Assembly: GCA_000091205.1 (NCBI GenBank)
Contig: AP006491.2
Length of the DNA stretch: 64,000 nucleotides
Direction: 5' to 3' (one strand)
From: Cyanidioschyzon merolae
Taxonomy: Eukaryota
The notes under the pieces were generated by a model. It saw only the letters and a program-made list of their open reading frames with translations, was not told the DNA's origin and searched no databases. Shown one piece after another: positions 1,753-64,000 of the stretch. The translations under genes were made by a program, and so were the position numbers. Each line of letters opens with the position of its first letter. The first letter of the stretch is position 1.

Positions 1753-4700
1753 AGCGCCTTGTCGGTAACGCTACGTTCTTGTGTGAAAATAACCTCTCTC
1801 CTGGAAAACGCTGTACTCGTTGGAAAACCCGGGGTCTCGAGTCACAGACTCGACTGAAGGCCAAGAGACACACTGGCACAAAAAAACGTGTCTTCGTTAC
1901 GCCTGGTCACGTACACGACCGCAGCGGTTCAAGGCGCCCGTGCGAAATGATCCCAGCGGCGCTACACCCCGTAGCGTCCCTGATGCGACAGCAGCAACCA
2001 CAGAAACACACACCTTGGACTCAAGAGCTCACAATGAACAAGTACGCAGGTCGAAAGTCCACGATACCACAGTCTGGCAACGAGACAGCACACACAAGCG
2101 GCAGCGCGAACAAAACGCACACGCTGTCCCTAGAGCTCGGCAGCGCCGGTTACAATTTTTTTTAATTTCATAAAGCGTTGACGAAGGCCGGCATTTCCCG
2201 ATTGACTGCTGGGGCGCTTGATACCAGCGTGCGGAGCAGCATTCATGATTCCACGTCCGACTTCTAAGCTCCATAAGCCATACCGTGTCGTGGGTATACT
2301 GGTTGCTTCGTATATTCTATCGTTTGCTGAGTGCGTGTCCTGATCATCCGCGACACCGCCTATAGCGCCGGTGCGGGCGTAGCACGGCGACAAAACGGCG
2401 TTGCCGTACCTCGGAGGGCGTCTGCTCGAGACGGTAGACAGGTACGCTAGCGCAGCCAGTTGCCCGCCTTTTCTGGCCGGCAGACTGCAGTAGGTTTCAG
2501 CTTGTGCTTGCATACTTCGAGCCTGAGAAGCTGTCCGACAAATCTAGATGGCGGCAGCTCCTTGGGTCCCGTCTTCAGCGCGGCAAAACTCCTGATATAG
2601 ATAGCAGCGTTAAAGTCTCATTTCACAAACTCCATGCGTTTATTGCCGCTGCTCGAGCTGACCAATGGAAGGAGGCATCGGACTCGTGCCCGCTGTGCCA
2701 CTTGGTTCGCTGTCAGCAACTCGTACTTTTCTGTGGCCGAAGGTCTCCGCTGTCTTCTCTCCGTATCGACCCTCTGGCGTGTACATCTGTGCTGATTCCT
2801 TAGATTTTACTTGCTTCATATGAACGCACTTTTTTATGCTCTTAGGTGAAGACCTTCCCCCGGCGAGAGGGACTTGCGGAAGAAAGAAGGCATATGTCCA
2901 AACGTCAGCGTGTGCTAGAAGCCGCAGCGATTCTGTCTGAAGAGCGATCATTACGTTTCAGGACTGAAAACGCTCTTTCGATGGAGTTGAGCCACGGAGA
3001 GTACGAAGGAATGAAAAGCAGCTCTACTCCCGGATAGAATCAGCGAAAAGCTCGAACGCGAAGGGCAATGGTGAAATGCTATGTTGTCCAGTAGAAGGAC
3101 GTCGCCAGACCTGCGGGGAAAAGTCTTCGATCATTCGACGAAAGGGTTGCTGTTGTATGAGCGTTCCCTACGAGCGAAACTCAGGCCGTCAAATGAATCC
3201 ATTCTAGCTAGAACAGATGATGATGTCCTCGTTCTCCTCGAGTTCTACCGAACATTGCACGGGCTCCGTCTCCGCAAATACCCATCTACGCTTCAACCGC
3301 TTCATCCGAAGCAAGTCTCATCGACTGAAACAAACCGACATGACTCCGCTTCATGCTCATCGCGACGTTCCAGCAACGCTATCCTTGCGATTTCGGTGCA
3401 AGATGGTCGCGCGTGAACTACGACTCTTTTTGCGACTATATCCCAGTGTTTTCAGGACGACACGAACAAGCCGTTCAGAAACAGAGACGCCCGTGGTGGC
3501 TGTTACCGTCGCTTTTGCTTTCCATTACATGATCAACGGCTCGTTTTCTATCATTGGCCGAAAGCAGTCTTTCACAGTACCAGTTTCTGGCGCGTGACGC
3601 GTATACTTCTTTCTTTCAGTTTCCCCAACCATCTGAGTGCTGTGGTACATCTGACCTGAATGCGGAATGCAGTCCTCGTTCCACTATTCAGTAAAGAATC
3701 TTTCCTAAAGAAAGTTCGTCGTCAATCTACAATATACATTGCGTAGTGTTTCCGATCTCCTGCAACACACCACGAAAAGCATTCAATTAAATGCAGCGAA
3801 GTTTGAACAATGTTGAGTGGAAACACTATGAACAGGTGGATCTCCTCTGGTCTGGATGCAGCAAGTCGCAGATATGTCGCAGGATGTAACATTTGGTTTC
3901 AGGGAACTGTTATCGAGCTTTGGGACGATTCCAGATCTCCTGAACGCTCTCGATTTGGCATTGTTCTGAATTGTCCATTGCTGCAGCGTATGGACGTGGA
4001 GCCGTTCTCTGAGGAATTCCGATAAAACGCTTTCGAGTGCGTCTCAATTCGACCTAGGCATGAACAGCCGGGGCGTTGGAAGCGCCTCGGAAACGTCAGG
4101 CTGTGTGCAGCATATTAGCATTTGCTTGGGCAGGAAGCAAGGATTCCGCCTCGCATCACCTACATCGAAAGTGATCAAAGCATACAAGCAACGCATTCGC
4201 CAGCTCAAATTCCAAAGTGCCAGCGAATGGACGGCCCAGTCGCGCTGGCGAACCTTGTGCGCAAGCCTCATGAGGAATCCCCAAACCTCTGGCGTATCCT
4301 GGCATCTGCACTTACCGATTCGCTTCACGAACATTCACCCATGCGCCCGCAAGCAAACGCATTCCTGGCAGCAATGCTTTGTATGCGGATATTTCGTTAA
4401 TATCGCAGCTTACAGGTTATCTTTCGCTGCAGCGACAGAACAGGGCATGCCGTGCAGCTCCGGCTGTCGCAAGCTTATTTGCAACCCTTCTCCTGAATCA
4501 CGTATAGGCGACTGCGAACCGGCAACTACAGATTGCAGCTTCCGAGACGCGAACCAGCTTCTAATCGATGCCGGCGACGTTGCTCGCTATCGCACGCTGG
4601 CGGCAGCGCGTACCAGTCTCCCGTCGACGCATGGGGAACGAGCATACGCAATCCAAATGCTCGTGTTTCTGTGCGTCATTTCCAAAATATATAGCTTTGT

Positions 4701-6410: not shown

Positions 6411-8284
6411 GTTACGTAGCCGACGAGCGTACATTGAAGTACATCAGGAGTGCCGGGTTGAGCCCAGATGGAGGCAGAGGGGTACGAGGCCAAGATTGGC
6501 CTTTCGTATGGAGAGAACGAATTAGAGAAATTGGAATCGGGGTAGAATTTCAGGCGATGGAGCTGGTCAATGAATACATTACTTCTCTGAAACGGAAAGA
6601 ATGTCTCTCGGTCGCAGTGCCGAGGCGAGAACGTGTGACGAAAAGCACCAAAGTGAACAACCAGCAGCGAGGGAGACGTGTGCTCCAGTCTCTGGCTTTC
6701 TGCACAGCACTCATTTGCGCCTTTCTGGATTTCCATTATAGTCTTTCACCTTAATTGTATTCCATCATCAGGTGCGTATACTCAAATGCCTTTTCGCATT
6801 TCATAGCCAGAAGTGTTCGGATTGCGTTCATTTTGAAAAAATAAAGAGCCCGATGGAAAGTTACGGACACGAAAGTCGAGGATCCTACAGGGCCATCCTC
6901 GCCAGGTTCCGCTAAAAACCCGAAAAGAATGTTGTTTTTGCCTGTGAACGAGGGAAGAAGAGCAAGTGACAAAGAAGACGAAGATGGAGATGTTGATGGG
7001 TGATAGGCGGGACCAGGTGTTCGCGAGACTCGGCGATAACGAGACTGGAATCGCACTGAGGGCTCGAGCTTTGGCAATTCCTGCATTGATGAGTTCAGCC
7101 ACGGGCAATAAACACAAGGAATTTGTGAATTGAGACTTCAACGCCACCATCATTAGCAGACGCTCTACAGTGCTGAAGACGACGAGACCCGAGGAGCTAC
7201 GGCGATCCGAATACGTGTGGTATCCTCCCAGGCTCGTAGTGAACTGGTAGAAACGGATGCCGATACCAGACTGCCGGTCAAAAATGCAAGGAGTCGTCGG
7301 TGCATGGGTAGATCTATTTATTCACCGTTCTTGTAGAACGTTTTCTGTTTTATTGAGAGCAACGATTATCTTCTGCTGCTGCATCCTCAGCACTTTTCTG
7401 CAGTCACGACAGCAGGCAAGTTTCGGCAGCCGAAAGCGCCCCTGCTGCCGCGTTCTCGATCCGCCATGAAAAAGCGTACGCAGATCATGCGATCCGGACG
7501 AGTGTGCATCTCCGGATGCTTGACTCTAGGTATGCCTATGTATTTGTATGAGTATGTGTGCCAAGAGCTGCAGCGATCTGATCACGAGAGTTACCGCTCC
7601 TCGAAGCTGCATGCGGTACAGCGACGGCTGGTCAAGGCGACAAGCAACCTGCGTACCAGAGGCATACGCTCGTGTACCAGCAGAGAAATTGCGGATGCAG
7701 CCGGGTGTGTACGTTTCAAGCGTTCGTGCACGCTACCAGTGAGCTTGTCGCTTTTGCACCCGACTGAATACAATTGGGGTAACGGACTTACAGGCCTCAT
7801 ACGGGCACTCCAAGTCGCAGATGCCAGCGCACAGGGCCTGCTGGTCGCCGGCCCGTCACACCGCTCGCTGCCTGGAATCGCTTCGTACGCCTTTGCACAC
7901 AGGCAGTGTCGAGGCGAGATCTCCACTAAATTCATGCACTCTACATGGAAACATCAAATGATGCTGCCTGTATGGATCCGAATATCATTTGATGCATCCA
8001 GACATGCTGTCGAATGCGGTGGAAGCACGACGTGTCCGATTTATCTTCCTGGAATGTGCACCAGTGCAGCAAGTACCCGAACGCTTGTTATACGGACGCA
8101 CGCCCTCGCCCGTTTCGTGGCGATGATTCCGTTTCCAGTGGCTAGCAGCGTCATGAGACTGGTATCCTCCCCGAGCGCCGGTTTGCTGAGGTCACTACAT
8201 CCCTTCCGTTCTGCCTGCATCCAGGCAAAACGCGGGCGCACAGCGCCCCCATTTCCACATCCGATACCGACACATCCATCTGGA

Positions 8285-13079: not shown

Positions 13080-13455
13080 CAAGAGTTTCTTGGTCTGCAG
13101 CCTCTACATTCACATTAGAGCAATACGGGTCAACGGTTTCTTACATAGTTCTGGGATTCTTGAACCCGGCAAGCTTCTAGAGTATCTTGGTCTGCAGCCT
13201 CTACATTCACATTAGAGCAATACGGGCCAACGGTTTCTTACATAGTTCTGGGATTCTTGAACCCGGCAAGCTTCTAGAGTTTCTTGGTCTGCAGCCTCTA
13301 CATTCACATTAGAGCAATACGGGCCAACGGTTTCTTACATAGTTCTGGGATTCTTGAACCCGGCAAGCTTCTAGAGTTTCTTGGTCTGCAGCCTCTACAT
13401 TCACATTAGAGCAATACGGGCCAACGGTTGCTTACATAGTTCTGGGATTCTCAGC
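13080..13455. repeat. Intergenic minisatellite, ~97-bp unit x ~3.8 copies
   Basis: The unit tcttggtctgcagcctctacattcacattagagcaatacgggccaacggtttcttacatagttctgggattcttgaacccggcaagcttctagagtt recurs at about 13087, 13184, 13281 and 13378 with a few substitutions. Confidence 0.85.
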
Positions 13456-17044: not shown

Positions 17045-19071
17045 ATTGCCAGGTCTCAGCTCGCGCTCGCTGCGTGTCTTCGTGCCGCGCACACACCACA
17101 ACACCAACACGCAGTCAACGTCGCGTGTGGCAGGCATCGCTCGTCGACGCCTACCGTCACGACGCCGCCGGCGATGCGTCGCCGACGCCGCACGCATCGC
17201 GTTTTTGGTGCGTGCATGCGTGCGTGCTGGACGCCCGGCGCTGCGGCATCGAGCATCGTCGACGGTGCAGCGATCGGGGCAGCGAGATGCGGTGCGCGCA
17301 GACCTGGACATCATCGCCTCGGATGCGTCGCGAACGTTCGATTTTTTTCATAGACAAGACGTTTACTTGTGCCAGCTTTCTCCGATTATGCGCATTTATG
17401 TTTTCTTACCTCTTTTGTGTGTTATTTTTTGTGCGCGGTGAGGTATCCATCAAACGTCCTACCTCCAAGTTACATTACCTATACTGATTCTCGGATATTC
17501 TGGTCGTTTCATACGTTCTATCGGGTGCGCTTAGTACCTAACCTAATCATACGCCTTTGGAACTTAACCGCTGGAGCAGATAGTTCATAGAGTTAGGAGG
17601 GCTTTTCCATACCACAGAGGGCGTCGGTTCGAGGCGTGGTTCACCCGACGTAGAACTGGGATTCGTCGTCAGTGTGTGCTCGGACAGTCTGCGGATGCAG
17701 GCTTGCCTTCGCTGCACGACACGCTGGAGAAACTTCACTGTTAGGATATATCGTGGGGGCCGCCTCTCTCCTTCGTGATCATGCATGGAATGCGTTGTTG
17801 TCGGTTGGCAATGCGGGTTTGTGCTCGACACTCATACAGAAGGTAGGCGCAGAAAGCGCACTAAACCCGTGTGCGCATCCGATTCGCTGGACCATCCGCC
17901 TAGAAGGTAGCATGTGAGTTTGTTCGCCACTAGTGAGCGCTGAGGCTCTGTTAGCGGACCATCAGTTGCCAGTGCTGCACTCAAAGTGAGTGTCCGGCCG
18001 TCGACTATCACGGTGATGCCCAGCTGCTGCTGTCCTTCAAGGAGATCGCTGCGCTCCTGCTTTCAGCGCGGCCACTGTAACAGTAAATATGTCAGCGTCT
18101 CGGGGATCTCGTCTCGACAGCAGGGACAGTGTGATTCCCAGTGCGATTCCAGTGCTCCTATCCGGCTTAGAGCCGGTGCTGCTAGTCAGAAACCACCAAC
18201 GTGGATTTTGGCGAGCCACTGGGTACCGCGAGCAAGTCCCGGGAATTCCAGCGCCTCCCACCAGTACTTGCATGTGTATGCTAGGTTGTAGTTCCGGTAT
18301 AGAGTCAAGCCGGCGTTACGGGCGCGACTGGTTCCGTGTCTACGTTCCCATATTGGTGTTCGGACCGTTCGCTTGAGGCGTCTGAAGTCTTCTACATTCC
18401 TGGGGAACGATTGGAGCGGACAGCCTGCTTCTGGGCGTCGCGCTGGTCCGAGTGGACTCCGAGTACGTCGCTTCGTGCTGCTGCAAGCATTAGGTCTGTC
18501 TGCGCAGCTTACTGGCTCCCAGCATGATTATGTAGTCCGAACCCGTATCCAATGAACCACAACTTGAGGCGACGCCCTCACTGGCATGGCAAAGCCGTTC
18601 TGTCTCCGTGCCGCATCTGCTCCAGGGGTGTAAGCGCGATTGCGAATGCTCAAGGAAGGTTACGTGCACAGTGGAATGCACGAAATAACCAGTACATCCG
18701 AAAGGAAGTACAAGTAATGGAACCTGAAGGTAGGGTCCAGCAGCATGATGGGCGCTTTCCCGAATGTCAATACCGATCTATCGCGCAATCTGGCCTCCAT
18801 GGTCCATAGAAGCGCTTTGGCATCGGCGGGAGAACCGGGCGTCGCCCCGCGCTGCGCTCCATGGAACAATGCTCAAATCACGAATAAATTGTACTTTATT
18901 AAATCTGTATGTACTATGATGTACAAAATAGCATTCCAGGAATCCCGAGATCACACACGCGCTCGAGACGTGAACTGTCTCGTCACTCTCGGCTACGGCT
19001 TCATCTTCCTCGTATTTCTTCGCCATTAGATACGAGTGCGGTAAGATTCTGGGCTGAAGTTTTCAATATTA

Positions 19072-24880: not shown

Positions 24881-25126
24881 GGAGCAGGCGAGCGGACCAA
24901 CTCCAACCGGCCTGCGCAGTTTCGCGTACCCCCAGCAGACACTTCGGAAACGCCCGACAAACAGCCGCTCCTGGCGTCCCGGGTGCGAAACGCCTCGCGC
25001 ACACAGACGCGTTCGTGCTGCACACCCGTGTCGACTTGAGCTCGCGGGCGCAACGAAGCCAGCCAGACTCGGTCTCGAATCAGCAAAGAGGTACCCCTCG
25101 CCAAACGCCATTCTTAAGTCGAACGA

Positions 25127-25860
25127 CGCCAGCGGTGTACAGTAGTGGCGACCGGGCCGCCCTAGAAGAAATGTCTCCGACTGATGTGCAGAAGCCTGCC
25201 CGTCTTTTTGGACCGGCCACCTACTACTGCTTCAAACTTTTTCTCATATAGTTTAACTTTGAGCGGTTTTCCAACCAAATTCTCTATCGTCGACCCGAGA
25301 GGTCTTTCCTCTCTCACCGCACATTTCCTTATATTGATTGCGGCGTTAAAGTCTCGGTTCACAAACTCCATACGTTTCTTGCCATTGATTGTACTTACTA
25401 ACGCAAGCAATCCTCGAACTTTCGCTATCCTTTCCATTTGCTCTTCTGTCAGCGGTCCGTACTTTTTTTATATCCTCAGGTCCCCGCTGGCACTTTTCCA
25501 TCTCGACCCTCTGAAGTGTACAGCCCAGTTCATGGTGTGTATACAATGCTCGAAATCCATCTACCGGTATTATAACAAAACGCCGTGCGCACTCCTTATA
25601 CGTTCTCGTCGTGGGATCTGGTGTACACCCTTGTTGGGTCGTCCAGCGCCTTGCTTCGTACGCTACTACGAGCCTTTGACTTTCATCCTCCTTCAAGGCA
25701 CTCAACTCACTGAAAAAAAAATGCGAATGCCCGATACTCCCTACATTATAGATTCATGCGGAGATCAAACTGCCCGCCATCCGAGATTGCATGTACGGAT
25801 CTCAGCGCTCGCGTCGGAAGCATCGGCAGTGGACGAGCGCCTTGTTGTGCACTGCCTGTC
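25127..25860 (-). pseudogene. Inverted, frameshifted fragment of the TnpB/Fanzor-like nuclease 3' region (RuvC-III end) plus its ~160-bp 3' flank
   Basis: Minus-strand ORFs 25346..25705 and 25162..25437 together reproduce [53 protein letters not shown]...PEDIKK...[19 protein letters not shown] from the full copy at 29.5-30.0 kb. They sit in two different frames because of 1-bp indels, and amino-acid identity is about 80%. Homology to the reverse complement of 29480..30132 starts sharply at 25127. Confidence 0.75.
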
Positions 25861-25891
25861 CACTGGACACGCAAGGTACTTTCGTCGGAAC

Positions 25892-27904
25892 ATGGGCGTT
25901 GAGAATGCTTTAGGCGGTTTCATAGTAACGAATACCTTCAGCGGTAGCGGTGTACGTTTCGTCGTACGGAACCGGAGCCAGTGCAACTCGCTGGTGGTGC
26001 CTGGGTTCCGCGCGAGGCGGCGTACGCGCTGCGGAGCACTTGCTCGCGTACGGGGGACAGATTCGGCGCCAGAGGGTACCCCCGACGCCGAAGCGAGGCA
26101 CCGTCCCAAGCCTGGTGAGCGAGGGCTCTTCCCGCTCGTTGCACCGCGTGAGGATATCGGGCGCTATTTCGTTGGAGAGCGTCGGATTTTGGACGAACGC
26201 ACAGCGCGCTATCCGCTACGCTCGACGGTAGAGGAAGTGCTGGCGGGCATTACGGTGGCGATGGCGCTGCTGCCTGCGGCGGTGTCTTGCGCGTTGGCCA
26301 CGGGCGTGCCGCCGCTCGCTGGAATCGTCTCGACTGGTCTCCTGTGTGCGATAACTGCCGCACTGGGAGGACGCCCTGGCATGATCTCAGGAACATCTGC
26401 AGCGCTCATTATTCTGCAAGCGCCTCTCTATCAACAGTACGGCGCAGCAGCGGTCGCTGCCGCCGTGGTGCTCAGCGGTATACTCCAGCTTTTCTTCGGG
26501 ATCTATCGTTTGGGAAAGTTTGTGCGGCTGATATCGTACCCTACCTTTCTGGGATTCATCAGCGGCATCGCCATCTTGACGGCGACAAGTCAGGTCTATG
26601 CGTTTCAGCTTCCAGCGGGAACCGGGCTGAGCCCGGGCGCACCCTGGCTCCAGGGTAACATGTTGCGTGCAGCGTTGATCGTCGCAGCGCTCGCCGCTGG
26701 AGTCGCCCATGTATGGCCCTTGATCATTCAGCGACTACAGCGCCGGCGCCCCGATAGTACCCATCGGTGGCAGCACCGCCTCGCTGAGCTGTTGCGTTGG
26801 CTCCCAAGCCCACTAGCGGGCATCCTCGTGGCATCCATTTATGCGGAGGTGACGCAAGCGCCTGTGCGGCGGCTTGGCGACTTTTTGCGCGACACGCTGG
26901 CACAGTCAGGGGCCATTGGCGTATCCTGGGCAGCCCTGCCGTCAACACCGCTGGCATGGATGGCCATTCTGAGCACCGCGCTTGGTCTCGCATTCATCGG
27001 TCTTTTGGAATCTCTGTTAACCATGACTTTGGTAGACGAAGTCACGGAATCGAGGGGTAGCACGCGTCGGGAGTGTCTAGCGCTTGGGGCAGGGAATATC
27101 GCCGCGGGCTTATTCGGTGGCGTGGGCGGCTGCGGCCTCCTGGGCCAGTCGCTCCTGAACACGAAATCAGGGGGACGCGGGCGTCTCTCTGGACTGACTG
27201 CGGCGCTGTGTCTTCTCGTGTTGGCGAGAAATCCGAGCGGACTGATGATTCGGATTCCCGTCCCAGCCATTGCAAGCCTTATGGTGCTGGTGGCGCTGGG
27301 CTCGTTCGAATGGGCATCGCTGCGCTTGTTTCGTGCCATACCTCTCGCTGATTCGCTGACCATTGTGAGCGTTGCCCTGATGACTGTAGCAACGCGCAAC
27401 GTCGCCCTGGCGGTCCTGTTTGGTGTGGTATTCTCGGCGCTGGTCTTTGCCTATAAAGCGTCGCGACGCATTACCGCCCAGAGCTTTATTTCGGAGGACG
27501 AGCAAACGCGCGGATGGCGGGGATACCGGATTGACGGTCCGCTGTTCTTTGGCACGGCGGAGCGCTTCAGTCGTCTGTTCGACCCAGCACGGGATCGTGC
27601 CGAAGGCCATGAGCACGTGATCATCGACTTCTCTGGTAGCCGCATCTGGGACGCGACAGCGCTAGAGGCGCTAGACTCCCTAGCCCGTCAGTATAGGAGC
27701 TATGGTATTCGGCTGCATCTGTGGGGTCTGTCTCGAGATAGCGCACGTCTGCTGCGCGAGGCACGCGCCTACATCGACGAGAGTGTCACGAACGAGAAAG
27801 CGCTCTACTTGTACGAGCGGGTTGTAGCCGACTATCCCACAAACGATAGTCTAGAGGTTGAGTACGAGCTTTTCGCGAAAAGAGAATCGGGGAATGCAGC
27901 GTAA
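25892..27904 (+). CDS. SulP/SLC26-family sulfate (anion) permease with C-terminal STAS domain
   Basis: VEEVLAGITVAMALLPAAVSCALATGVPPLAGIVSTGLLCAITAALGGRPGMISGTSAALIIL is the SulP N-terminal signature. About 10 further TM segments follow, then a STAS-like end (YRIDGPLFFGTAERF...HVIIDFSGSRIWDATALEAL). The stop is TAA. I chose the start at the ATG at 25892, because the 5' 236 codons of the long ORF are antisense to the Fanzor-like fragment. Confidence 0.8.
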   Translation: MGVENALGGFIVTNTFSGSGVRFVVRNRSQCNSLVVPGFRARRRTRCGALARVRGTDSAPEGTPDAEARHRPKPGERGLFPLVAPREDIGRYFVGERRILDERTARYPLRSTVEEVLAGITVAMALLPAAVSCALATGVPPLAGIVSTGLLCAITAALGGRPGMISGTSAALIILQAPLYQQYGAAAVAAAVVLSGILQLFFGIYRLGKFVRLISYPTFLGFISGIAILTATSQVYAFQLPAGTGLSPGAPWLQGNMLRAALIVAALAAGVAHVWPLIIQRLQRRRPDSTHRWQHRLAELLRWLPSPLAGILVASIYAEVTQAPVRRLGDFLRDTLAQSGAIGVSWAALPSTPLAWMAILSTALGLAFIGLLESLLTMTLVDEVTESRGSTRRECLALGAGNIAAGLFGGVGGCGLLGQSLLNTKSGGRGRLSGLTAALCLLVLARNPSGLMIRIPVPAIASLMVLVALGSFEWASLRLFRAIPLADSLTIVSVALMTVATRNVALAVLFGVVFSALVFAYKASRRITAQSFISEDEQTRGWRGYRIDGPLFFGTAERFSRLFDPARDRAEGHEHVIIDFSGSRIWDATALEALDSLARQYRSYGIRLHLWGLSRDSARLLREARAYIDESVTNEKALYLYERVVADYPTNDSLEVEYELFAKRESGNAA

Positions 27905-28399
27905 AGACAACGGGCATCGCTAGAGGGCATCGCAGAGGAGCAACGGACCCCCGCAGGGCGCGAGCGGGTCGTGCGCTCGCTCCTGTATCATTTTCGGTGC
28001 CGTTTGGTTACATCCGCTTACGCAGATCGATAAGTCGAAACAGACAGCGGTGATTGCCAAGCATCGCGTCGTTCCTGTGCGCCCGAACGGAGATGTTGTC
28101 AGCGTTCCGCTCCGCAACGTTCCATCCATTGCACCGAAGTGCGCCCCGTCGACAACACATTCCAGCGTGGGATCAGGCGCACGAAGTTTCCCTGGCACAG
28201 CAGCAGTGACGGACATCAAAACAGTCGAGGTTTCGGAAGCGTTTTCGACAGGACCTTGATTTGTCGCCTGATGCTTGGCACAGGGGAAACGCGGAGGGGA
28301 AATGAGCGGGTTCATGCCCTCCACGAGAATCACGCCGAGTACCGCCCTGAGGGTACTCGATTCAGGGGTGATTCGGATCTTTAAACCTACGGGACGATC

Positions 28400-30132
28400 A
28401 AGTACCATACGGACCTGAAGAACCATTTGACGATGAACCTCGAACGCTTCATGAAACGCTCCGTCTATGCACTCTACCCGGGCATCGCTCGCAAAGGAAT
28501 ATGGGCGATTATCAATGGCATCACGAAGGATTGCCAGAATGAACAGGAGATCGAATTCTTCGACAAGAAGACATCACGCAGGAGAAAGAATGAAGCTCCT
28601 GTAATCCATTGGGTTATACAAGAGCATCGTGCCGTACTGGGGCTGGCGAACCCAACAGAAAAGTTATCAGAGATGAAAAAAAGATAAGAAAAGATACGAT
28701 CGCCTCATCCTGCGCTATTTCGTGTTCCTGGACCAAGGACTGGAACGCGAGGCATAGATGAAGCTGAGTGAGGAGAAAAATGATGCGTCGGAGAAACGAA
28801 AGGCTTTCCTAATGGGGAAGCACCCTAACGTCGTTCCGTTGAACAACATCGAGTCACACTGTGTGACTATCGACTCCAGAGTCCTTCAAGGCATCATGAA
28901 GGAGATCAGTCCCGAGTTCGATGTTAGCAGGGAGGAGTTCTCCGGTGAAAATCGGGAGATGTACGGGAAGAACATCTTCGATGTCAATCGTCTCAAAGTG
29001 AGCAAATAAAAGGTATTCGCTGGGATGATCGAAACCGATGGAGTAGCCATGTGTGTACAGTATCGGAGGTTGAAGGTGGATCGTCCCATCGCGCCTTGGG
29101 CTTCGCCCGTGACGAAGCATGAAGATAAGATGGAGATGGGCCCTGAAACGTGTAATCCCCAGGATAACGACCTTGTCGTTGGCGCGGACCCCGGGAACAC
29201 GAATATCGTAACCATCGCAGTACCCAAGCGTGCGGAAGATGGCATTGACGGTAACTTGCCTCAGAAAGACATGCGTCTGTTGAGATTCTCGAGAGCGAGA
29301 TACCATCGAGAATCGGGAATCATGAATGCAAGCAAGAAAATCGAGACGTAGAATGCAGGAATGAAAGAGCACCTGGAAGCTATGACCAAGTTGACTAGCC
29401 GAGGAGCGGACTCGGAAGCTTTTCGGAAATTCATGGAAGTTCGTGTTGCTCACTGGAAGGCGCTGTGGAAAGAGTATACAAAGTCCCGGTAGGCTTGTCT
29501 GCGTATGAGTCTATTCCGTGGGATGCAGCGGGCGTTCGCAAACTTTTTCAATGGGTTGAGCGCCTTGAAGGAGGACGCAAGTCAGAGGCTCCTGGTAGCA
29601 CACGGAGCAGGGCGCTGGAAGACCCGAAAAGGATGTACACCAGCTCCAACGACAAGAACGTACATGGAGTGCGCAAGGCGTTTCGTTACGATACCGGTAG
29701 ATGAGTTTCGAGCGTCCTATACGTACCATGAACTGGGGTGTACGCTCCAGAGAGTCGAGATAGAAGAGTGCCAGCGGAGCCCTGAAGATATAAAAAAGTA
29801 CGGACGGCTGGCGGAAGAGCAAATGGAAAGGAGGGCGAATGTTCGAGGACTACTTGCATCAGTAAGAACAACCAATGGCAAGAAACGTATGGATTTTGTG
29901 AACCGAGACTTTAACGCAGCCGTCAATATAAGGAGATGTGCGGTGATGGAAAGAAGACCTCCAGGATGAACAAGAGTGAACTTTGTTGGACAATCATCTA
30001 AAGTGGAACTATATGAGAAAAAGTTGAAACGAGTAGTAGGTGGCCGGTCGAAAAACCTGGGAGGCGTCTGCACATCAGTTGGGGACGTCTTGTCTAGGGC
30101 GGGTTTCCCGCCACTACTGTGCACCGCTGGCG
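28400..30132 (+). mobile_element. TnpB/Fanzor-like (OMEGA-type) element: nuclease gene plus a conserved 3' terminal non-coding region; the left boundary is approximate
   Basis: Sampled stretches here are 53-57% GC, about 4 points below the window average, with A-rich Lys codons. The nuclease ORFs run 28427..29969. The conserved 3' flank 29970..30132 is also present, inverted, at 25127..25290, and homology breaks sharply at 30132. Confidence 0.65.
28427..29969 (+). CDS. TnpB/Fanzor-like RuvC-fold nuclease (putative RNA-guided endonuclease); the reading frame is interrupted, so it is possibly a pseudogene
   Basis: RuvC-I-like motif [17 protein letters not shown] in ORF 29025..29351. C-terminal region [57 protein letters not shown]...[23 protein letters not shown], with the TnpB/Fanzor VDEyRTS-like and RuvC-III DxNAAxNI signatures. 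28758..29969 is a single frame broken by in-frame TAA (29007) and TAG (29349, 29490). The N-terminal Lys-rich ORF 28427..28687 is in another frame. Confidence 0.6.
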
Positions 30133-30222
30133 GCAGCGTTTTTCTTTGAAAGGCGTGCGGTGTGCGCAGCATATCGACATAGTTCGTTATCGTGCACCAT
30201 AGTCTCTGTTCACTGCACCGGC

Positions 30223-31821
30223 ATGGTACACCCAAACGCTGGCGCGCAGGGCGCCGAGCTCCTGTTCTGTGGCTCCTGCAAATGGGACACACAGGGGCGC
30301 GACCGCAAAGGCGCCATCGAGTACGGGGAAGAGGTACTAGCGCCACATCGTCTCACGGGCTCGGTCACACTGGGAGGTCTCACGACACCAGCTGACCGAG
30401 CACAGATGCTGCGGATCGTTAGCGGACCGGTGGCAGCGCACGCCGTGCTCATTTTAACTGACGGACGTGCGCTGGCAATAGGGCGAAACACGCACGGTGA
30501 GCTCGGTATAGGTACAGCGCGGCGCTTTGCTCCAGTGTTTATGCCTGTCGTCTTCATCAAGGGCGGGCGCTGCACCGGCGCCGCCTGTGGTCGCACACAC
30601 ACGCTCTTCCTCATGGACGACGGCGTGGTGTACGCGACCGGGGCGAACGATGCAGGTCAGCTTGGTGTCGGTGCGCGGGGCATCAGCGCCAGCGGGGCCA
30701 ATGTACCGGCAGCTGTGACCCCGATCCGCCTGACGTACCTCGCAGAACATATGGGCGTGCGAGCAGCCCAGGTAGGATGTGGAGAACAGTTCTCCGTCGT
30801 GCTCGCTGATGACGGCTCGCTCTACACTTTTGGAACACATCGGGACGGTGTCCTGGGACTGGGCACCACCGGCGAAGTCATTGGCAAACAACGCATGGAG
30901 GTGGAGAGCGAACCCCTGCCGCGACGGGTCACGCGCTTCGTGCGCTCGGACGGCATCGTCGTTGCTCTCGATGAGTCCAAAAGCATGGACGAACAAAGCG
31001 AGGATATACCCCGCTTCACACAGGTAGTTTGTGGTCAGCGGCATGTGGTTGCTCTAGACTCCCGCCACCGCGTCTGGTCGTGGGGATTCGGTGGTTATGG
31101 TCGTTTAGGTCATCGAACGCCGAACGATGAGCTGCGTCCCCGATGCATGGAGTTTTTCGAGCGTTTGCGCGACGACCGCCGGCGATGTGTCAAGCTATAC
31201 GCTGGCGCCTCCTGCTGCTATGCGCTGACCGAAATGGGCACCGTGTACTTTTGGGGCATCACAAAAATGACCGGTGAAGCGACGACATCGCCGCAGATGC
31301 TCTACGATTTGCACGGCTGGAAAATTCGAGATATCGCCGTGGGCATCTCATCGACGATGATCGCTTGTGAGGAGTGCACGACGATCGCCTGGGGTCCGTC
31401 ACCCGCCTACGGCGAGATGGGTTTCGGTGAGACCGTCGTTGGAAGGAGTTTTGCAGGCAGGACAGGCGTACTCAAAAGCAGTACCCAACCACGGATTGTC
31501 GATCCGCTGAAAGGCGTCCAAGTGAGTCAGCTTGCGATGGGGGCTTTTTTCACGTTCCTCCTGCTTCGACCCGAGGAGGTGCAAGCGTCAGACGACCAAG
31601 GCACGAAGGTGCAAGCACTCCCGACGCTCTCGTGGGATGCGCATGCCAATATCGGCGCGCAGCCTGTACGCGGTTTGACGATCCTCGACGCAAGCTCGTT
31701 GGGGTCCCGGCGCGGTCGGAAACCCGGCAAGGTCGCTGCTCGAGCGACCAGCAGCGCGACTAAAACCCGCGTAACCTCAGTGTCCGCGGTCGTTGTTCCG
31801 GAAAAGAGGCGCCGCACCTAG
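30223..31821 (+). CDS. RCC1 (regulator of chromosome condensation)-repeat protein
   Basis: Repeated beta-propeller blades: HGELGIGT...GRTHTLFLMDDGVVYATGANDAGQLGVG...GEQFSVVLADDGSLYTFGTHRDGVLGLG...GQRHVVALDSRHRVWSWGFGGYGRLGH...CYALTEMGTVYFWG. I chose the start at the ATG at 30223, because the 5' 61 codons of the ORF overlap the Fanzor-element terminus. Confidence 0.7.
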   Translation: MVHPNAGAQGAELLFCGSCKWDTQGRDRKGAIEYGEEVLAPHRLTGSVTLGGLTTPADRAQMLRIVSGPVAAHAVLILTDGRALAIGRNTHGELGIGTARRFAPVFMPVVFIKGGRCTGAACGRTHTLFLMDDGVVYATGANDAGQLGVGARGISASGANVPAAVTPIRLTYLAEHMGVRAAQVGCGEQFSVVLADDGSLYTFGTHRDGVLGLGTTGEVIGKQRMEVESEPLPRRVTRFVRSDGIVVALDESKSMDEQSEDIPRFTQVVCGQRHVVALDSRHRVWSWGFGGYGRLGHRTPNDELRPRCMEFFERLRDDRRRCVKLYAGASCCYALTEMGTVYFWGITKMTGEATTSPQMLYDLHGWKIRDIAVGISSTMIACEECTTIAWGPSPAYGEMGFGETVVGRSFAGRTGVLKSSTQPRIVDPLKGVQVSQLAMGAFFTFLLLRPEEVQASDDQGTKVQALPTLSWDAHANIGAQPVRGLTILDASSLGSRRGRKPGKVAARATSSATKTRVTSVSAVVVPEKRRRT

Positions 31822-32732
31822 TGCGGTGTACGCTCGCGATACAGAGGCCTCGCGAACACCGTTGAGGCTAGCCTGATCCGCTGCTGCGCTGAGAGATGCG
31901 CATGCCTCCATTCTGTAACCGCTGTGTAAATCTACCGCTCACGTGTGCATCCTTGCACCGATGAAGTATGATTCGTGACTTGGCCGGCGCGACACAGGCG
32001 ACGGGAGCGCACTCACCGAGGCATCAACACAATGAGGCATGGTCGGGGTTGCAGGGTGCTGGTGATGCGGCAACTGCAGCCTGCGTTTCGGTGTCGTGCG
32101 AGGCAGCGACAAGTTTGTCGCACGACATGTACCAAGAGAAGTGGAATAGAGCACTGGGAACCTGCCCATTGGTGACGGTTGCCACGTTCCCAGTGTGCGC
32201 GTGTTTGTCGGTTTACTTGGGGAGTGAACACCTAACGCGGCGTATGCCGGCGCGCAGCAAAGTAAGCATGATGCATCTCCGATAAAGAATGAGTCTGTTG
32301 GCTAGCCTGGATGATGAACGCTGGTGTCCATGCGCGCCGCGTCCGAAAACGTAGGTGCTAGACATACGCTGCCTCATAGGCGGGATGTCTTCTGCCCGCT
32401 ACATGGAGCACTCAAGTCCTTTTCATCGACATTGACACTGGGCAGCAGTGCAGATCGGGCGGTTATCCGAGGCGCCGCTGTGCAGCCATCAACGTTCAGT
32501 ACGAGGCTTTGCTGCCTTGCTTAGCACCAAATGCGGTATGGGTAACAGACGCCATTTTGTAGCTTGCCCATCTTCTGGGGATGCAAACGTTCCCATCAAT
32601 CAACGAGTTCGCCGGCGCTCCGTTCCGAACACCAAAACAGGGAATTACGGGAAACGAACGCCACCCTTGCGTCCTGCCCTGCAACCATTCGCCGCAAACC
32701 GCGCACTCACGCCTCGGCTGTTGCCACTTTCA

Positions 32733-45728: not shown

Positions 45729-47859
45729 AATTTGAGTTGCGGCCACGGCGCGCTACACGCTTTCCAGAGTCGGTAGCGAGCGTTCTCAGCATGGACTGAG
45801 GTGACTGCGTCCAAGCTGATGTCGCTTTGCAGTTCGCGGAGCTTGTGCGATGGCCCCGGTGGGCCTCACAGAGAAGACGGCGGGAGAGTCGATGTTGGCA
45901 GGCCAGTGCGCGGCGCGAAAAACCGCCACCTGGACGGGGATGACGCTAGACGCTGCGCCCTGCACCGCATGCTGGCAGATCGGGTACCCGCTGGGGATTC
46001 AGGGTTCGCACTGAGCATCATTCGTTGGACAAGGAGCGCCGACTTGTGTCATGGGGCACGTTTCGCCCCGAACGATGCCGCGCTCCGTTGCTAGGTTTCT
46101 GTTTTAAAGCATCAAGAAACGGTCGGAACGAGAAACTCGTGACGACGCGTGGGTAGTTGACCGACACGAGCCCCTTAGCTGCCGCGCGGTTCGCGTCGAA
46201 GCCGCCCGTTCCAGAACCGAGTGCCGCCATCGACCAGAGCAGAAAACCTCGCAGGCTTTCGGGGATAAGCGCACCGTTGCGCCACCGTCGGCGCTTGTCT
46301 TCGTCAGCGTCAGAGCAGTGAATTCCGGAATGCCTGTGTTAGCACGCCCTTTTTGCCGTTGCATGTCTCGTGCGCAGATTCCAACACCATGAATGAATCC
46401 TCTGGAGGGCCGCAGAGAGACTGCGTGTTATCACTGCTAGCTTGCGCAAAATGCTCGCACGTGTGCAAGTCAGTTTTTCCACGGGCAGCACGTGGATCAG
46501 TCGCCATGCTTGTAGCGCTCATGTGGAACGTCAAGCACCGAAAACGAAACGTACCCAACAGTTTCTATACGACTGTATGCTCGTCAAATCATCCGGCTCC
46601 CTATGTTCTTCGATGAAACACTGTAAAAGATGCCGCAAGATCTTGAGGTTCCGTACTGTAGACAGGACCGGCAATGAAGAAACATAGACAGACAAAAGGA
46701 AAAGCGCGCGTCTGCCGGAGAACGCCGCGCGTTGAACGACGCATGATCAGTTCCGTCCTGAAAAGCGAACGCCTGTTATCGAAGGGCCTGGTGGTCATCT
46801 CAAGCGATGAGACTCGATTCAGCGGAAATAGTAGACCTGAATACGGGTACCCACAGAAGAGCAGACCGCACATCCTTAAAAGTGCCCAGCGAGCATTCCG
46901 TCAAAATCAGTCCCAGCGGCGATTCAATCTTGTAGATGGGTGCAAATCACCAAACGGGCAGGATTCTTTGAGATCGCATCTTTCATTGAATCACCTTGTC
47001 GTCGCTCTTTCCCTTATTCTTCTGTTCTGCTGCCAGATAACTTTCCAACATTCAACTGCGGCTGCAGAACACGCAGCTGAGCTCGGCAACGAGCTGCTCT
47101 TCGTGTCAACTGCTTCTCCCTGGTCCAATCCAGTCGAAGCCGTCTTCGCTGGTGTCAAACGCCATTTATACGCTAACCGATCAACAGATAAGTCGTTCTC
47201 TACCCTCACCAGCCCTGTAGTGCTGTTTATCTCCACTGTTCTTGCGCAGGCGGGAGCGGAAAGACCCGCTCCACACTGTGGGCATACTCATCACGTTGAG
47301 AGTGAAGAAAGGCACTGGAGTATTGATAGGCACAAACGCGCATCGAAGAGGCGAGCTTTGGAAACACCGTCCATCCAGTACGTCCGAACCCCGAGGGAAG
47401 ACACAAGTACAGAGTATACCAACCAAAACAATACATCCCAGCCAAGTAGAGGAGAGGGCGAAGGAGCTGGTCTCTGTAACCAAGCACGAAGCATTCGAGC
47501 AACACCGCGAGTAGCATTGGCAGAACTGGTTCAAGGTCTCTCGTTTACAGTGACGATGGAGACAGACACGATATGCATCTGCTTGCACTGGGTGAACCAT
47601 TCTCCTGAAATGAGCAAATCGATTCATGTTCAAATGCTCCCGGTACATGAAGACGGAGACTTGTCGATGAGCGTAGATTCCGGCTAAAAAAGGCGTCATG
47701 GCCGTCGTCGTATCCCCAAATGAAGAGGACTGAGCCACAGACTTGGATGGTGAGCAGATGAAGCGGCTCAGCAATTCCAGGAATCCGTGGTACAGTCTGT
47801 CGGGCATGATGAACCCCGGGAGACATTCCACCACTTCGAATGACGGCGACAGGACCCGC

Positions 47860-48300
47860 TCGCCGTTCTCGGGCCTCTGAACATCGCATCGAACAGGATT
47901 GGATGCTTTATATGCTTTTGTCGGCGGGTAAAGTAATGGATCATATAGATGATCTTCGGTCGGCGTCCATGAAGCCACACGTATGTCGGCGACAGTTTCA
48001 GTCGTCCAGAGGCCAGCAGCGTGCAGTCGTCAATGTCTTGCATGCAATGAATAAGAAAACGACCGAAAAGTCGTATCGTTTCCTGGTAGCATATGGCGCT
48101 GGACGTGCCGTAGCGCGCAAGGGCTGCACTCCTGCTCCGCCCGGACCAGAGCATTTAAGGTGTGTAGGAAAGGATTCTTTACGATTCCAACCGAACCGCT
48201 CAGGATGACATGTGCGCATCACGAGCACGAGTACAAGCAGAGACTCGTAAAGAGAAAGCAGATGAAACAGCGCGGGGTGCCTTTTGTGGTATACGGTGCG
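47860..48300 (+). pseudogene. Third, heavily degraded fragment of the TnpB/Fanzor-like nuclease gene
   Basis: ORF 47840..48208 contains [50 protein letters not shown]. This parallels [49 protein letters not shown] in the 29.5-kb copy. ORF 48160.. continues frameshifted with FTIPTEP.RMTCAHHEHEY, matching [20 protein letters not shown]. Confidence 0.45.
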
Positions 48301-49060
48301 CTCACCGAACGTCAGATGGAAGGCCAGTCACAGCGGAGAGGCCTGCCCTGCAGCGATTCCGCCAGCAACCGTGCGCGCACGCATCTACCGCTTCGAGATT
48401 TGAACGCCCCGAGCAGCGTTGGGAAACGCCTTGGAATTCCGAAGTATCCAGCTGCTCTACCTCAAGCGAACTTTCCATGGCATCGTTTAGGACTCCATGC
48501 AGGCATCGTACTGAATCACCGAAGACTTTCGATGGAAACAACTCAGTCGCAAGTGGGGACAGGGCTGGATGCTCGCGTGCAGCTCGGCACTCGAATGCCA
48601 CAATCCAGCAATGCATCGAGGCTGGAGTGCTGCACGCAAGGATCTACACAGGGAACAATGGCCCGGTGCACTTGATCAGACATCATCGTGTCCGACAATT
48701 CGATACGTTTGCGTATGTGCGTCGACCGTTGCCGTAAATGGATTATATACGCGTCTTGATGACAAGCTGACGCATGTTGTCCAGATGCAGGTCGAGATGC
48801 CTGCTCGCGAATCCCGATATGTCTCTACCGTTGACGCCGTGGCAAGCGCGCCTCCGCAGCGATGCACGGATGCTGCGTGTGCGTGGCACGCATCCGTCAC
48901 GTGACATCATCCGTGTATCGCGGTGCGTGGCAGCACTCTGTGGACACGACGACGCGGGATGCACATGCATCCCGGCGTTTGCTTCGGATGTCTATAGAGC
49001 GTCCGTTTTTTTCGTCTTTTATCGATAGGTGAGTCTGGATCGGATGCTGAACCTGGGCCT

Positions 49061-58675: not shown

Positions 58676-58907
58676 TTTCAGGGCGCTACACGTGAAACGC
58701 CGTACATGCACAAGTGCGTGCATGGACGACGGACTGCAAGCGGAACGTGTATCCGACACGAATGCTTGCACCGCCCGCAAAGATACAAAAACACATAAGG
58801 TGCAGTGTAAAAGGCATGGGTACAAACCTCTATCCTCAGGCGAATCGCAAATCGCTACAAGCAGCTCGGGCATTGTGTATCAGAAACAGTTAGTGGCTCC
58901 GGTTCGT

Positions 58908-58975: not shown

Positions 58976-59030
58976 AGGCCTGCGCTGCGGGCTCGCAGAT
59001 GGCGTCGTTGCATCCACATCGAAGCGCCCC

Positions 59031-63237: not shown

Positions 63238-64000
63238 CCCGTGAGCATTGAGTACGAGTATCCCACCTGAATCCCGAAACGAAACAAGGCGGACGCGGGA
63301 TGGGAAGGTTCCACGGGAGGCGGGGCGCTCGTCAGGAGCGTCTCACGCAGGGCACGGCACAGCACAAGCGCTCGTGCATGAACAGCACCGCCCGCGTCTT
63401 CTTGGTAGTACGAGGTCTCGCGTACCTGAGGCGCACGCGAGTCCACTGATTCGCGCACCTCGTCACTGGTGGATCCCGAGCAAACGCCTGCGTCAGGAAT
63501 CAGCGGTACATGCGATAAACGTCCACCGAGGAGCGACTCGGCACCCGAGAACCAGCCTCAAAACCACGTTTCCCGAATCGTCGTGCAGCGCTGGCATGCA
63601 TGCAGCCATGCGTCGTAGTCTTGTGGAGCAGAAACTGACGACAGGATCCCGCCCTGCATCGGGTTGGCGCCCTCAGTTGTATGGCAGCGCTGTTCTGTTT
63701 CCGTGATGCATCGGCCCCAGCGTTTGAGGCGCCATTACTGGTGCCCAAAGCAGGCACTCGGCGCACATTAGAGCGAACAAAACGACCAGTGCATCCGAAA
63801 GGAAGTACAAGTAACGGAACTTGGAGGTAGATGCGTCACGATGGACACATTCTCCAAATCCAGCATCCGTCCGGCAGTCTGGGATCCGTGGTCAATTACA
63901 GACGTTTTGTCATCGAAGTAAATCAGCGCACGCACACGCACGCTCGTATCCTGCAGCGCATGGACCGGGGCGCTGTGTGCCGGGTGTCGCCGCCAATGCG

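Follow-up and report, generated by a model that had tools for sequence, protein, structure and literature searches.

Does the stretch at positions 28427-29969 of this window hold a gene for an RNA-guided endonuclease, and if not, what is it? We addressed this question in a window of 64,000 nucleotides, meaning the whole stretch of DNA that was analysed, from Cyanidioschyzon merolae, a red alga of acidic hot springs with a 16.5-Mb genome. The first-pass annotation had read 28427-29969 as one reading frame for a TnpB/Fanzor-like RuvC nuclease embedded in a eukaryotic nuclear locus. We find that the locus, with its boundaries extended to 28206-30163, is very probably a dead, 5'-truncated copy of an approximately 3.2-kb C. 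merolae element with one gene, for a Fanzor1 protein.

The locus lies on nuclear chromosome 9 of C. merolae 10D, flanked by genes for a sulfate permease and an RCC1-like protein, and eight proteins encoded in the window were 100% identical to chromosome 9 entries of this strain. These flanks uphold the earlier view of a eukaryotic insertion as opposed to prokaryotic contamination. The genes neighbouring the remnant are ordinary long ORFs under standard stop codons. No entry in the current C. merolae protein set matched any piece of the remnant, and an Rfam scan of the whole window returned no match. The Fanzor1-bearing repeat remnant also accounts for an N-terminal extension, now obsolete, in the gene model of the neighbouring sulfate permease.

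Compared with a consensus HMM made from 14 full-length element copies, the locus gave an E-value of 0 (nhmmer) and resolved into an element copy and a coding remnant. CMe-1A is the published Fanzor1 family of C. merolae, catalogued in Repbase and described further below.

28206..30163, + strand: 5'-truncated copy of an approximately 3.24-kb CMe-1A-type element, covering consensus 1200-3237, up to the element 3' end
28244..29966, + strand: Fanzor1 (CMe-1-type) CDS remnant, a pseudogene with stops, frameshifts and a deletion relative to homologues and consensus

The copy is 87.3% identical to the metagenome-derived consensus, and blastn matched it to L001 and L002. Its first ~1.2 kb is missing: a non-coding 5' stretch of ~0.82 kb is gone, as are ~125 codons at the beginning of the frame, and with them the start codon and the NLS-like region. 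In the remaining frame, nonsense codons stand at 28755 (TAG), 29007 (TAA), 29349 (TAG) and 29490 (TAG), where homologues encode E, Q, W and W, respectively. The TGA at 29967 is a fifth, premature nonsense codon, as the consensus ORF ends at a TAG that corresponds to window positions 30095-30097. All three stop-codon types are represented among the five. The frame is further shifted by three 1-nt events, at 28243 (-1), 28676 (+1) and 30048, and a 75-nt in-frame deletion at 29110 has removed one acidic repeat unit. Because of the 5' truncation, the five nonsense codons, the three frameshifts and the 75-nt deletion, this copy is a 5'-truncated pseudogene that is unable to make a Fanzor1 protein. 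What had been taken for a single reading frame at 28427-29969 is a mosaic of short ORFs broken by in-frame stops and 1-nt indels, and the proposed endonuclease gene is a pseudogene. The Lys-rich stretch assigned to the N-terminal portion was also misplaced, the true N-terminal ~125 codons being missing. An environmental contig carrying the same copy was 99.16% identical to it and had the same broken ORFs, and by sequence comparison the insertion is old and common to wild relatives.

The peptide strings on which the nuclease assignment was founded are all present, on the + strand and in a single register. They lie far above chance, since the window translation retrieved over 200 homologues with identities of 55-78% and the family profile reached E = 1.7e-22. 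This profile, A2, comprises 79 sequences with a C. merolae-type protein as its first row, and residue numbers below refer to it.

29172..29222, + strand: RuvC-I motif, catalytic Asp codon GAC at 29187-29189 (D318)
29589..29618, + strand: canonical RuvC-II position, Gly instead of the usual Glu, codon at 29604-29606 (G457)
29691..29741, + strand: alternative catalytic Glu motif, codon GAG at 29703-29705 (E490)
29895..29945, + strand: RuvC-III motif, Asp codon GAC at 29907-29909 (D559)

All four active-site codons are still present in the copy. D318, G457 and E490 are invariant in A2, and at least 90% of its sequences share D559. The earlier proposal that the motifs occupy catalytic positions held when A2 was aligned with solved Fanzor1 proteins: D318 aligned with the DPG/DPN of PpFz, SpuFz and GtFz, E490 with the IDEFRTS, LDEYKTS and VPEHYTS segments, and D559 with the NRD of PpFz and SpuFz. 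G457 and E490 are spaced 33 residues apart. Fanzors are known to carry Gly or Pro at the canonical RuvC-II Glu together with an alternative Glu downstream (Jiang et al., 2023; PMC10530073), and at the level of aligned residues the rearranged RuvC site of the C. merolae-type family is this same arrangement. For the zinc-finger region the first-pass annotation was half right. Only two Cys are found between VDEF and NRD, as it had stated. Its reading of this as degeneration of the copy did not hold, since the trait belongs to the whole clade: the C. merolae group likewise has only two, and the wider clade of 79 relatives retains one conserved Cys (LLWC) in the zinc-ribbon region. The solved SpuFz, PpFz and GtFz carry CxxC...C..C, whereas the C. 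merolae clade is without this four-Cys zinc ribbon. The ribbon is frequent among Fanzor1 proteins and occurs in every solved one, but we do not regard it as a defining trait; CMe-1 was classed as Fanzor1 despite this absence (Bao and Jurka, 2013; PMC3627910).

The broken translation was a poor query by itself. A single-sequence search with the 403-residue window translation gave no meaningful match in Pfam, NCBIfam or PDB sequences, so the evidence for Fanzor1 comes from the profile and from the modelled relative, and not from this copy by itself. A shallow profile of 16 close sequences (A1) placed SpuFz1 second among PDB sequences, but without significance (E = 2.7), and AlphaFold on the A1 alignment reached a pLDDT of 33.8. 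With A2, the search of PDB sequences returned Fanzor1 chains only, with motifs in register (PpFz 9cf0, the match at 1.7e-22; SpuFz 8gkh, E = 1.6e-15; GtFz 9cer, E = 2.5e-6). An AF2 model was calculated for P0001, an open relative and not the window copy (pLDDT 83.9, pTM 0.78). Its best seven PDB matches in Foldseek were all Fanzor1 (E = 2.1e-13 to 4.5e-9, TM at most 0.61), and Cas12 and TnpB (8h1j) ranked after them at E of ~1e-2 to 1e-3. By profile and model, the protein encoded by the element is a Fanzor1, a member of the eukaryotic branch of TnpB/Cas12 RuvC nucleases.

The proposed superfamily was thus borne out, and narrowed to Fanzor1, by the A2 search and the Foldseek comparison. Among the checks suggested in the first-pass annotation, structure prediction with the relative gave the overall Fanzor1 fold (REC/WED plus RuvC). 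In the profile searches the Pfam models found no match, and the 79-sequence profile recovered the solved Fanzor1 chains. A Pfam scan of five near-intact homologues gave no match, and PF07282 was seen in 2 of 10 relatives, both times below threshold. The label PF26935/DUF8286 was rejected, as it had no match in the Pfam scan and no literature was found for it.

Relatives of the protein supply what the window copy has lost. The N-terminus of P0096 reads MRSFSRKKTNTKRKR and includes the NLS-like KKTNTKRKR; similar stretches are QKKKRK in the consensus and MPPKQKRK at the start of P0219. A variable acidic 25-residue repeat loop precedes RuvC-I in the C. merolae clade. None of 80 sampled environmental loci had a fully open frame of ~760 codons, the longest reaching 629 codons.

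Could the remnant nevertheless be a functional, expressed Fanzor nuclease gene, read by recoding or assembled from several ORFs? Its four active-site residues are still encoded and the repeat family has been reported as transcribed (Nozaki, 2007; PMC1955436), but we give this reading almost no credence, and it is already contradicted. Recoding would have to deal with five nonsense codons, among them TAG, TAA and TGA, at sites that encode amino acids in homologues. The neighbouring genes are read normally under standard stop codons. The frame contains three 1-nt indels and has lost its initial ~125 codons along with 0.8 kb upstream of them, and none of the pieces has a C. merolae protein entry. 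An origin as a prokaryotic TnpB of the IS200/IS605/IS607 type, brought in by contamination or recent horizontal transfer, is likewise contradicted and extremely improbable. Such an origin would share the superfamily, TnpB 8h1j is among the weak structural matches, and two distant relatives give sub-threshold matches to PF07282. However, the flanking genes are those of C. merolae chromosome 9 at 100% protein identity, and Fanzor1 matches the family better than TnpB/Cas12 by at least 10 orders of magnitude. The family also has a Fanzor-type N-terminal extension with an NLS-like motif, Gly at RuvC-II, no Pfam or NCBIfam match, and hundreds of decayed copies in the same lineage.

The dead Fanzor1 element copy has a published identity. 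One Fanzor1 family is listed for C. merolae, CMe-1A, with ~150 copies of ~3 kb that lack terminal inverted repeats (TIRs) and are old, at ~80% identity to their consensus (Bao and Jurka, 2013; PMC3627910). The 5' ~635-640 bp of CMe-1A are common to a separate short repeat, TE-N2_CMe (Bao and Jurka, 2013; PMC3627910). Our element consensus is 3,244 nt long with a single 782-codon frame; no terminal inverted repeats were seen in it, its coverage shows a step at ~640 nt, and 5' parts also occur by themselves. Its 5' 0.8 kb contains no TnpA-like or other ORF, a 132-codon frame there being without a Pfam match. Judged by organism, architecture and family, 28206-30163 is one decayed member of CMe-1A. 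Earlier work had described in C. merolae a 'novel interspersed repetitive element', with 253 copies averaging 3.2 kb, ~5% of the genome, and a truncated ORF weakly similar to WSV486 of white spot syndrome virus (WSSV) (Nozaki, 2007; PMC1955436). WSSV is itself a Fanzor1 carrier (Bao and Jurka, 2013; PMC3627910). The agreement in size and copy number, together with the similarity to WSV486, leads us to infer that CMe-1A is most probably this 253-copy repeat, an identity stated by neither paper. The two reports differ on intact copies: all are truncated according to Nozaki (2007; PMC1955436), while some are intact according to Bao and Jurka (2013; PMC3627910). The element and its Fanzor1 protein were thus already published in 2007 and 2013 and are not new.

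At least nine further element fragments lie in the window, and 3' fragments are the commonest remnants of the coding part. Those resolved in detail are the following.

25099..25764, - strand: second copy, 3' fragment only, consensus 2567-3236; forms an inverted repeat with 29498-30132
2452..2787, - strand: older 3' fragment, consensus 2806-3144
6736..7309, + strand: old copy with an internal deletion; 6736-6988 matches consensus 767-994, and 7077-7309 matches 2919-3152
47680..48474, + strand: heavily decayed, very old relative with 22-35% amino-acid identity, FLVAYGAGR...KGCTPAP still readable
18411..18803, - strand: 5'-part fragment of the TE-N2_CMe type (Bao and Jurka, 2013; PMC3627910), consensus 2-389
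17455..17909, + strand: 5'-part fragment, consensus 61-515
63656..63891, - strand: 5'-part fragment, consensus 3-239
2218..2431, + strand: 5'-part fragment, consensus 25-238

The inverted repeat between 25.1-25.8 kb and 29.5-30.1 kb is explained by copies of the Fanzor1 repeat. A break in synteny falls at 25,101.

We next consider the 3' end of the copy, which is complete to the element boundary and has a predicted fold of its own.

29967..30163, + strand: element 3' tail, candidate fRNA scaffold, 81-89% conserved, with little codon periodicity and a stable predicted fold
30136..30156, + strand: predicted terminal hairpin GCGTTTTTC-TTT-GAAAGGCGT, directly inside the element 3' boundary

The tail folds at -51 kcal/mol (z = -2.1). 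Tail z-scores lie between -1.0 and -3.6, whereas a coding control gave +1.0; the antisense strand, too, folds more stably than its shuffled versions (z = -2.3). In the proposed structure 88% of cells pair, versus 39-60% in slid controls, the structure having been derived from the same alignment. Many of the pairs are G-U, possible on the + strand only. The terminal hairpin was predicted in every copy folded and occurs in two sequence versions across copies. RNAalifold with default scoring gave only 3 bp in the 3' region; a usable consensus structure was obtained with RIBOSUM scoring only, with modest covariation support. By analogy with other Fanzors, the 3' tail fits a guide-RNA (fRNA) scaffold.

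It is conceivable that the protein is dead and the tail still useful as RNA. The tail would then be transcribed into an fRNA-like molecule that takes its guide from the flank beside the RCC1-like gene and is loaded in trans by a Fanzor from an intact copy elsewhere; alternatively, the tail would provide the downstream gene with 5' UTR or promoter sequence. The completeness and stability of the tail agree with this, as do the prevalence of 3' fragments among coding-part remnants in the window and the reported transcription of the family (Nozaki, 2007; PMC1955436). The tail also shows no differences in 197 nt from the environmental strain, compared with 0.8% in the rest of the copy, but ~1.6 differences would be expected and the deficit is not significant. 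Covariation in the tail is weak, and a source of protein is uncertain in this genome, given the 0 of 80 environmental loci and the report that all copies are truncated (Nozaki, 2007; PMC1955436). We regard use of the tail as RNA as very unlikely, and favour a dead element copy.

If an intact master copy of the element existed, it would encode a ~760-residue protein with a putative N-terminal NLS. The active site would be made up of the DPG Asp, a Gly where the canonical Glu normally stands, the alternative Glu of VDEFRTS and the NRDxNAAxNI Asp. If the protein behaves like those Fanzor1 enzymes that have been tested, it would bind an RNA whose source is the 3' end of the element that encodes it. 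Loaded with this RNA, it might cut double-stranded DNA matching the guide beside a short motif, and cleavage may help the element to persist or spread. RNA-guided cleavage of double-stranded DNA is established for other Fanzors (PMC10530073), and it is from these that such cleavage by the C. merolae protein and a guide role of its 3' tail would follow. The copy at 28206-30163 is excluded from this role, having lost its promoter-proximal 1.2 kb and start codon and having a broken frame.

The ends of the element bear on how it might move. A related, hairpin-capable motif of ~23 nt occurs in direct orientation at both CMe-1A termini. It reads TTTTTC..ACAAAACGTTTAC at the 5' end, and at the 3' end either CGTTTTTCTTTTGAAAGACGTTTG or the palindrome CGTTCGACTTTCGAACG. 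No clear case was seen in the window of a solo TE-N2-like piece ending with the 3' terminal motif. By analogy, this terminal layout resembles that of IS200/IS605 'peel-and-paste' elements. One may propose that CMe-1A, as a eukaryotic Fanzor1 element, still moves by a single-strand, hairpin-recognising route, with a transposase in trans or with participation of the Fanzor itself. A second proposal is that the many 3' tails that survive, 29967-30163 among them, continue to supply guide RNAs. We consider these proposals unlikely.

For annotation, the locus should be masked as the remnant of a repeat that carries Fanzor1, and no gene should be called there. A Fanzor1-bearing family is the dominant repeat of this 16.5-Mb genome and represents a clade without the usual zinc ribbon. 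Since the host lives in hot springs, the repeat is dominant and the clade lacks the ribbon, a protein resurrected from the consensus, together with the 3' RNA, could by analogy be worth considering as a compact RNA-guided nuclease that tolerates heat; this is an opportunity and not a finding from the window.

Compared with known systems, the element shows no essential difference from CMe-1A, which comes from the same organism, is ~3 kb long against the 3,244-nt consensus here, and has no TIRs (Bao and Jurka, 2013; PMC3627910). The earlier described repeat agrees in size, abundance, dispersed distribution and truncated ORFs, although its TnpB/RuvC relationship was not recognised there (Nozaki, 2007; PMC1955436). 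The RuvC core is homologous to that of TnpB (ISDra2, 8h1j) and Cas12f of IS200/IS605 and IS607. The likeness to TnpB/Cas12f elements extends to a guide RNA encoded at the gene 3' end (here a candidate), the absence of TIRs and TSDs, and hairpin-forming ends. In canonical TnpB, RuvC-II carries Glu, an NLS extension is lacking and TnpA is the partner. The C. merolae family has Gly at RuvC-II and an NLS-like extension, and the 5' 0.8 kb of its element contains no TnpA-like ORF; the structural match to TnpB is weak (E ~1e-2) and TnpB Pfam models were not triggered. The solved Fanzor1 proteins SpuFz1 (8gkh, 9ceu-9cez), PpFz (9cf0-9cf3) and GtFz (9cer-9cet) are only 12-15% identical to the C. merolae family, which is without their CxxC...CxxC ribbon and has an extra acidic 25-residue repeat loop. 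With these proteins, however, the P0001 model shares its overall fold, and the DPG of RuvC-I, the alternative Glu in (V/L)DE(F/Y)(R/K)TS and the NRD of RuvC-III are in register between them and the C. merolae family.

An ORF scan of the plus strand between 28.2 and 30.2 kb returned a chain of short ORFs and no long one. Three-frame translation placed nearly all of the peptide quoted in the first-pass annotation in one register, and the quoted motifs were found exactly where they had been placed. What had been presented as a reading frame was thus a real peptide but a conceptual splice of fragments, with four internal stops and a frame change at ~28680, upstream of which the homologous peptide lies in a different frame. 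The internal stops stand for E, Q, W and W in homologues, and the TGA that ends the register takes the place of a Leu codon. Alignment to a 3,244-nt consensus HMM, built from 14 full-length environmental copies, gave 87.3% identity and the following lesions.

Lesions of the window copy (indels and deletions relative to the consensus)
28755, plus strand: in-frame stop, TAG
29007, plus strand: in-frame stop, TAA
29349, plus strand: in-frame stop, TAG
29490, plus strand: in-frame stop, TAG
29967, plus strand: end of the register, TGA
28243, 28676, 30048 and 30144: 1-nt indels
29110: 75-nt deletion, one acidic repeat unit gone
29874: 3-nt deletion

Since the match was limited to consensus positions 1200-3237, the window copy has lost ~125 N-terminal codons, with them the start codon and an NLS-like stretch seen in the homologous protein P0096, as well as the non-coding region upstream. 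None of its ORF pieces that were looked up had an entry among NCBI C. merolae proteins. The terms gene and candidate endonuclease were therefore wrong for this copy, which is truncated and carries stops and indels; judged from its sequence, it is dead. Two long antisense ORFs over it (29717-30346 and 28854-29453, both minus strand) are spurious.

The eukaryotic nuclear context was borne out by the flanking genes. Eight long window ORFs are exact C. merolae strain 10D proteins with CMI locus tags, all from a single contig of 810,151 bp, chromosome 9, and these matches together with the neighboring genes exclude prokaryotic contamination. The genes adjoining the copy code for an RCC1-repeat protein and for a sulfate permease of 670 aa, BAM79957.1, which has Sulfate_transp and STAS domains. 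Over window 25101-35969, an environmental contig, L084, matches at 99.16% identity, and the 83-, 108- and 154-codon ORF pieces of the window copy recur on it. These common lesions indicate that insertion and decay are older than the split of these strains. Synteny between L084 (position 1595) and the window (25101) stops exactly at the outer end of a 3' element fragment, and upstream of the block L084 carries another gene, DUF155; this break could be a repeat-mediated rearrangement or an assembly chimera. An obsolete 906-residue sulfate permease model (UniParc UPI00024AAC64), since replaced by the 670-residue entry BAM79957.1, starts at 25184, and its first ~190 residues read the element fragment in antisense (window 25184-25891). 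Unrelated tandem arrays lie at 53048-53461, 13069-13451 and 58299-58673 (periods 69, 97 and 123 nt), the one at 58.3 kb inside the span of ORF 58311-59180.

The family has most probably been described twice. Nozaki et al. (2007) reported a transcribed 3.2-kb interspersed element in C. merolae with 253 copies (~5% of the genome), whose truncated ORF bears a weak similarity to WSSV WSV486. Bao and Jurka (2013) recognized one Fanzor1 family in this alga, protein CMe-1 in element CMe-1A. Its ~150 copies share ~80% identity with a consensus of ~3 kb, and the element lacks TIRs and has undetermined TSDs; its 5' 635 bp are 95% identical to the short repeat TE-N2_CMe, and WSSV was given as a Fanzor1 carrier. 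As both papers most probably describe this element, the finding correctly re-identifies a family already in print, and the novelty suggested for it was unfounded. Our consensus contains a single 782-codon frame (positions 822-3167) after ~0.8 kb of 5' non-coding sequence. Coverage of one reference copy by 80 environmental loci gave an element length of ~3.27 kb; the 3' edge is sharp, and coverage steps after ~640 nt. Using nhmmer and tblastn, we located at least nine further family pieces within the 64-kb window. An inverted repeat (25205-25717 versus 29544-30055) revealed a second, 3'-only copy, and a broader pairing of 25099-25764 (minus) with 29498-30132 (plus), at 81-84%, joins two opposite 3' parts of the same element that flank the sulfate permease gene. 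Four pieces are solo 5' fragments.

Solo non-coding 5' pieces of TE-N2_CMe type
18411-18803, minus strand
17455-17909, plus strand
63656-63891, minus strand
2218-2431, plus strand

The two at 17.4-18.9 kb form a mutually inverted pair. No 3' terminal motif was seen on any of the four. One environmental copy (locus L002) is adjoined by an RVT_1 reverse-transcriptase gene (814-2710, minus strand); the lineage has few non-LTR retrotransposons, and this is probably one.

The 5' terminus lies ~30 nt beyond the consensus HMM and reads ...TTTTTC(N6-8)ACAAAACGTTTACATT followed by GACCATGGATCC, while the 3' terminus reads ...CGTTTTTCTTTTGAAAGACGTTTG and continues into short subfamily-specific tails (GTTGTCGCTGCC, TTTCCAGGGGT or GATGGTG). 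When the two consensus ends were compared without gaps, ~15 of 23 positions were alike in direct orientation, and a loose pattern for this motif matched 12 5' ends and 12 3' ends. Across loci L004-L083 it appears at both termini, in direct orientation, as a ~23-nt T5C...AAA(A/G)ACGTTT motif.

Example ends with the terminal motif
63845-63891, minus strand: 5' end
30136-30163, plus strand: 3' end

The 3' motif forms a strong hairpin and comes in two versions, of which CGTTCGACTTTCGAACG is perfectly palindromic. The consensus 5' part holds no TnpA-like ORF. This approximate motif may refine the published description of the element as unclassified and without TIRs.

By analogy with tested Fanzors, an intact Fanzor1 protein would enter the nucleus, bind RNA transcribed from its element's 3' end and then cleave DNA matching a flank-derived guide. 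Across 50 copies, conservation of the RuvC-III coding stretch was 0.93, 0.94 and 0.83 at codon positions 1, 2 and 3, a codon periodicity that was almost absent from the final ~100 nt ahead of the terminal hairpin, where conservation was 81-85%. For the last ~120 nt, a consensus structure scored with RIBOSUM paired in 88% of cells versus 39-60% with slid partners, a score obtained on the same alignment that yielded the structure and on copies that are mostly neutral relics. Double-change cells numbered 13, versus 5.1 ± 2.1 in shuffles, and several positions are mainly G-U, possible on the sense strand only. Individual 3' tails folded more stably than their shuffles, with z between -1.0 and -3.6 (the window copy at z -2.1 and -51.2 kcal/mol; a coding control at z +1.0), but the antisense strand folds well too. 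A terminal hairpin of 9-12 bp, in two sequence versions, was present in every copy folded. Given the shared alignment, the relic copies and the antisense folding, these signs of a 3' module of the type of an fRNA, the Fanzor guide RNA, are suggestive only. The terminal-motif and 3'-RNA observations are the residual value here, which is modest; resurrection of a Fanzor1 from a hot-spring alga is a possible use.

Assignment to the TnpB/Fanzor family was right. Single-sequence searches of the window translation against Pfam, NCBIfam and PDB sequences returned nothing, nor did near-intact homologues match Pfam. Relatives in a large protein collection numbered >200, were 55-78% identical and had open frames up to 593 residues; JGI or ENA metagenomes supplied almost all of them. 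A 16-sequence profile ranked SpuFz1 second in PDB (E = 2.7), and AlphaFold on that shallow alignment gave no usable model. An exhaustive profile search returned 1,461 relatives, many of 600-740 residues and ~30-40% identical. More than 1,400 of these are more distant (e.g. P0219, P0227, P0232, P0235), many with full-length 600-740-residue frames, Met starts and basic N-termini, which suggests that Fanzor1 proteins without a zinc ribbon make up a large clade. The zinc finger called degenerate was correctly observed, but its state is a trait of the whole clade rather than decay of the window copy. Directly upstream of the RuvC-I Asp, at window ~29110, lies a 25-residue (75-nt) acidic repeat, ...KHEEKKEA..ATQKVQDNDLVV..., which varies from one to ~six units between copies (P0002, P0003, P0021, P0043) and is disordered in the AlphaFold model (residues 268-293).

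The profile of A2, an alignment of 79 family proteins, matched three entries in the whole PDB sequence set, all Fanzor1: Parasitella parasitica (E 1.7e-22), Spizellomyces punctatus (E 1.6e-15) and Guillardia theta (E 2.5e-6). DPG, (V/L)DE(F/Y)(R/K)TS and NRD stayed in register across these alignments. With A2, AlphaFold reached pLDDT 83.9 and pTM 0.78, and the first seven Foldseek entries in PDB were Fanzor1 (E 2.1e-13 to 4.5e-9, TM up to 0.61), followed by Cas12b, Cas-phi, Cas12 variants and TnpB 8h1j (E 3e-3 to 1e-2). Fanzor1 membership is thus supported on three counts: the sequence profile, the fold predicted for the family and the arrangement of the active site. The invariant A2 columns include D318 (DPG, the RuvC-I Asp), G457 (AYG) and E490 (VDEF), and D559 (NRD, the RuvC-III Asp) is at least 90% conserved. 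In Fanzors the canonical RuvC-II Glu has characteristically given way to Gly or Pro, and a Glu located further downstream compensates for it (Jiang et al., 2023); the G457/E490 pair fits this hallmark.
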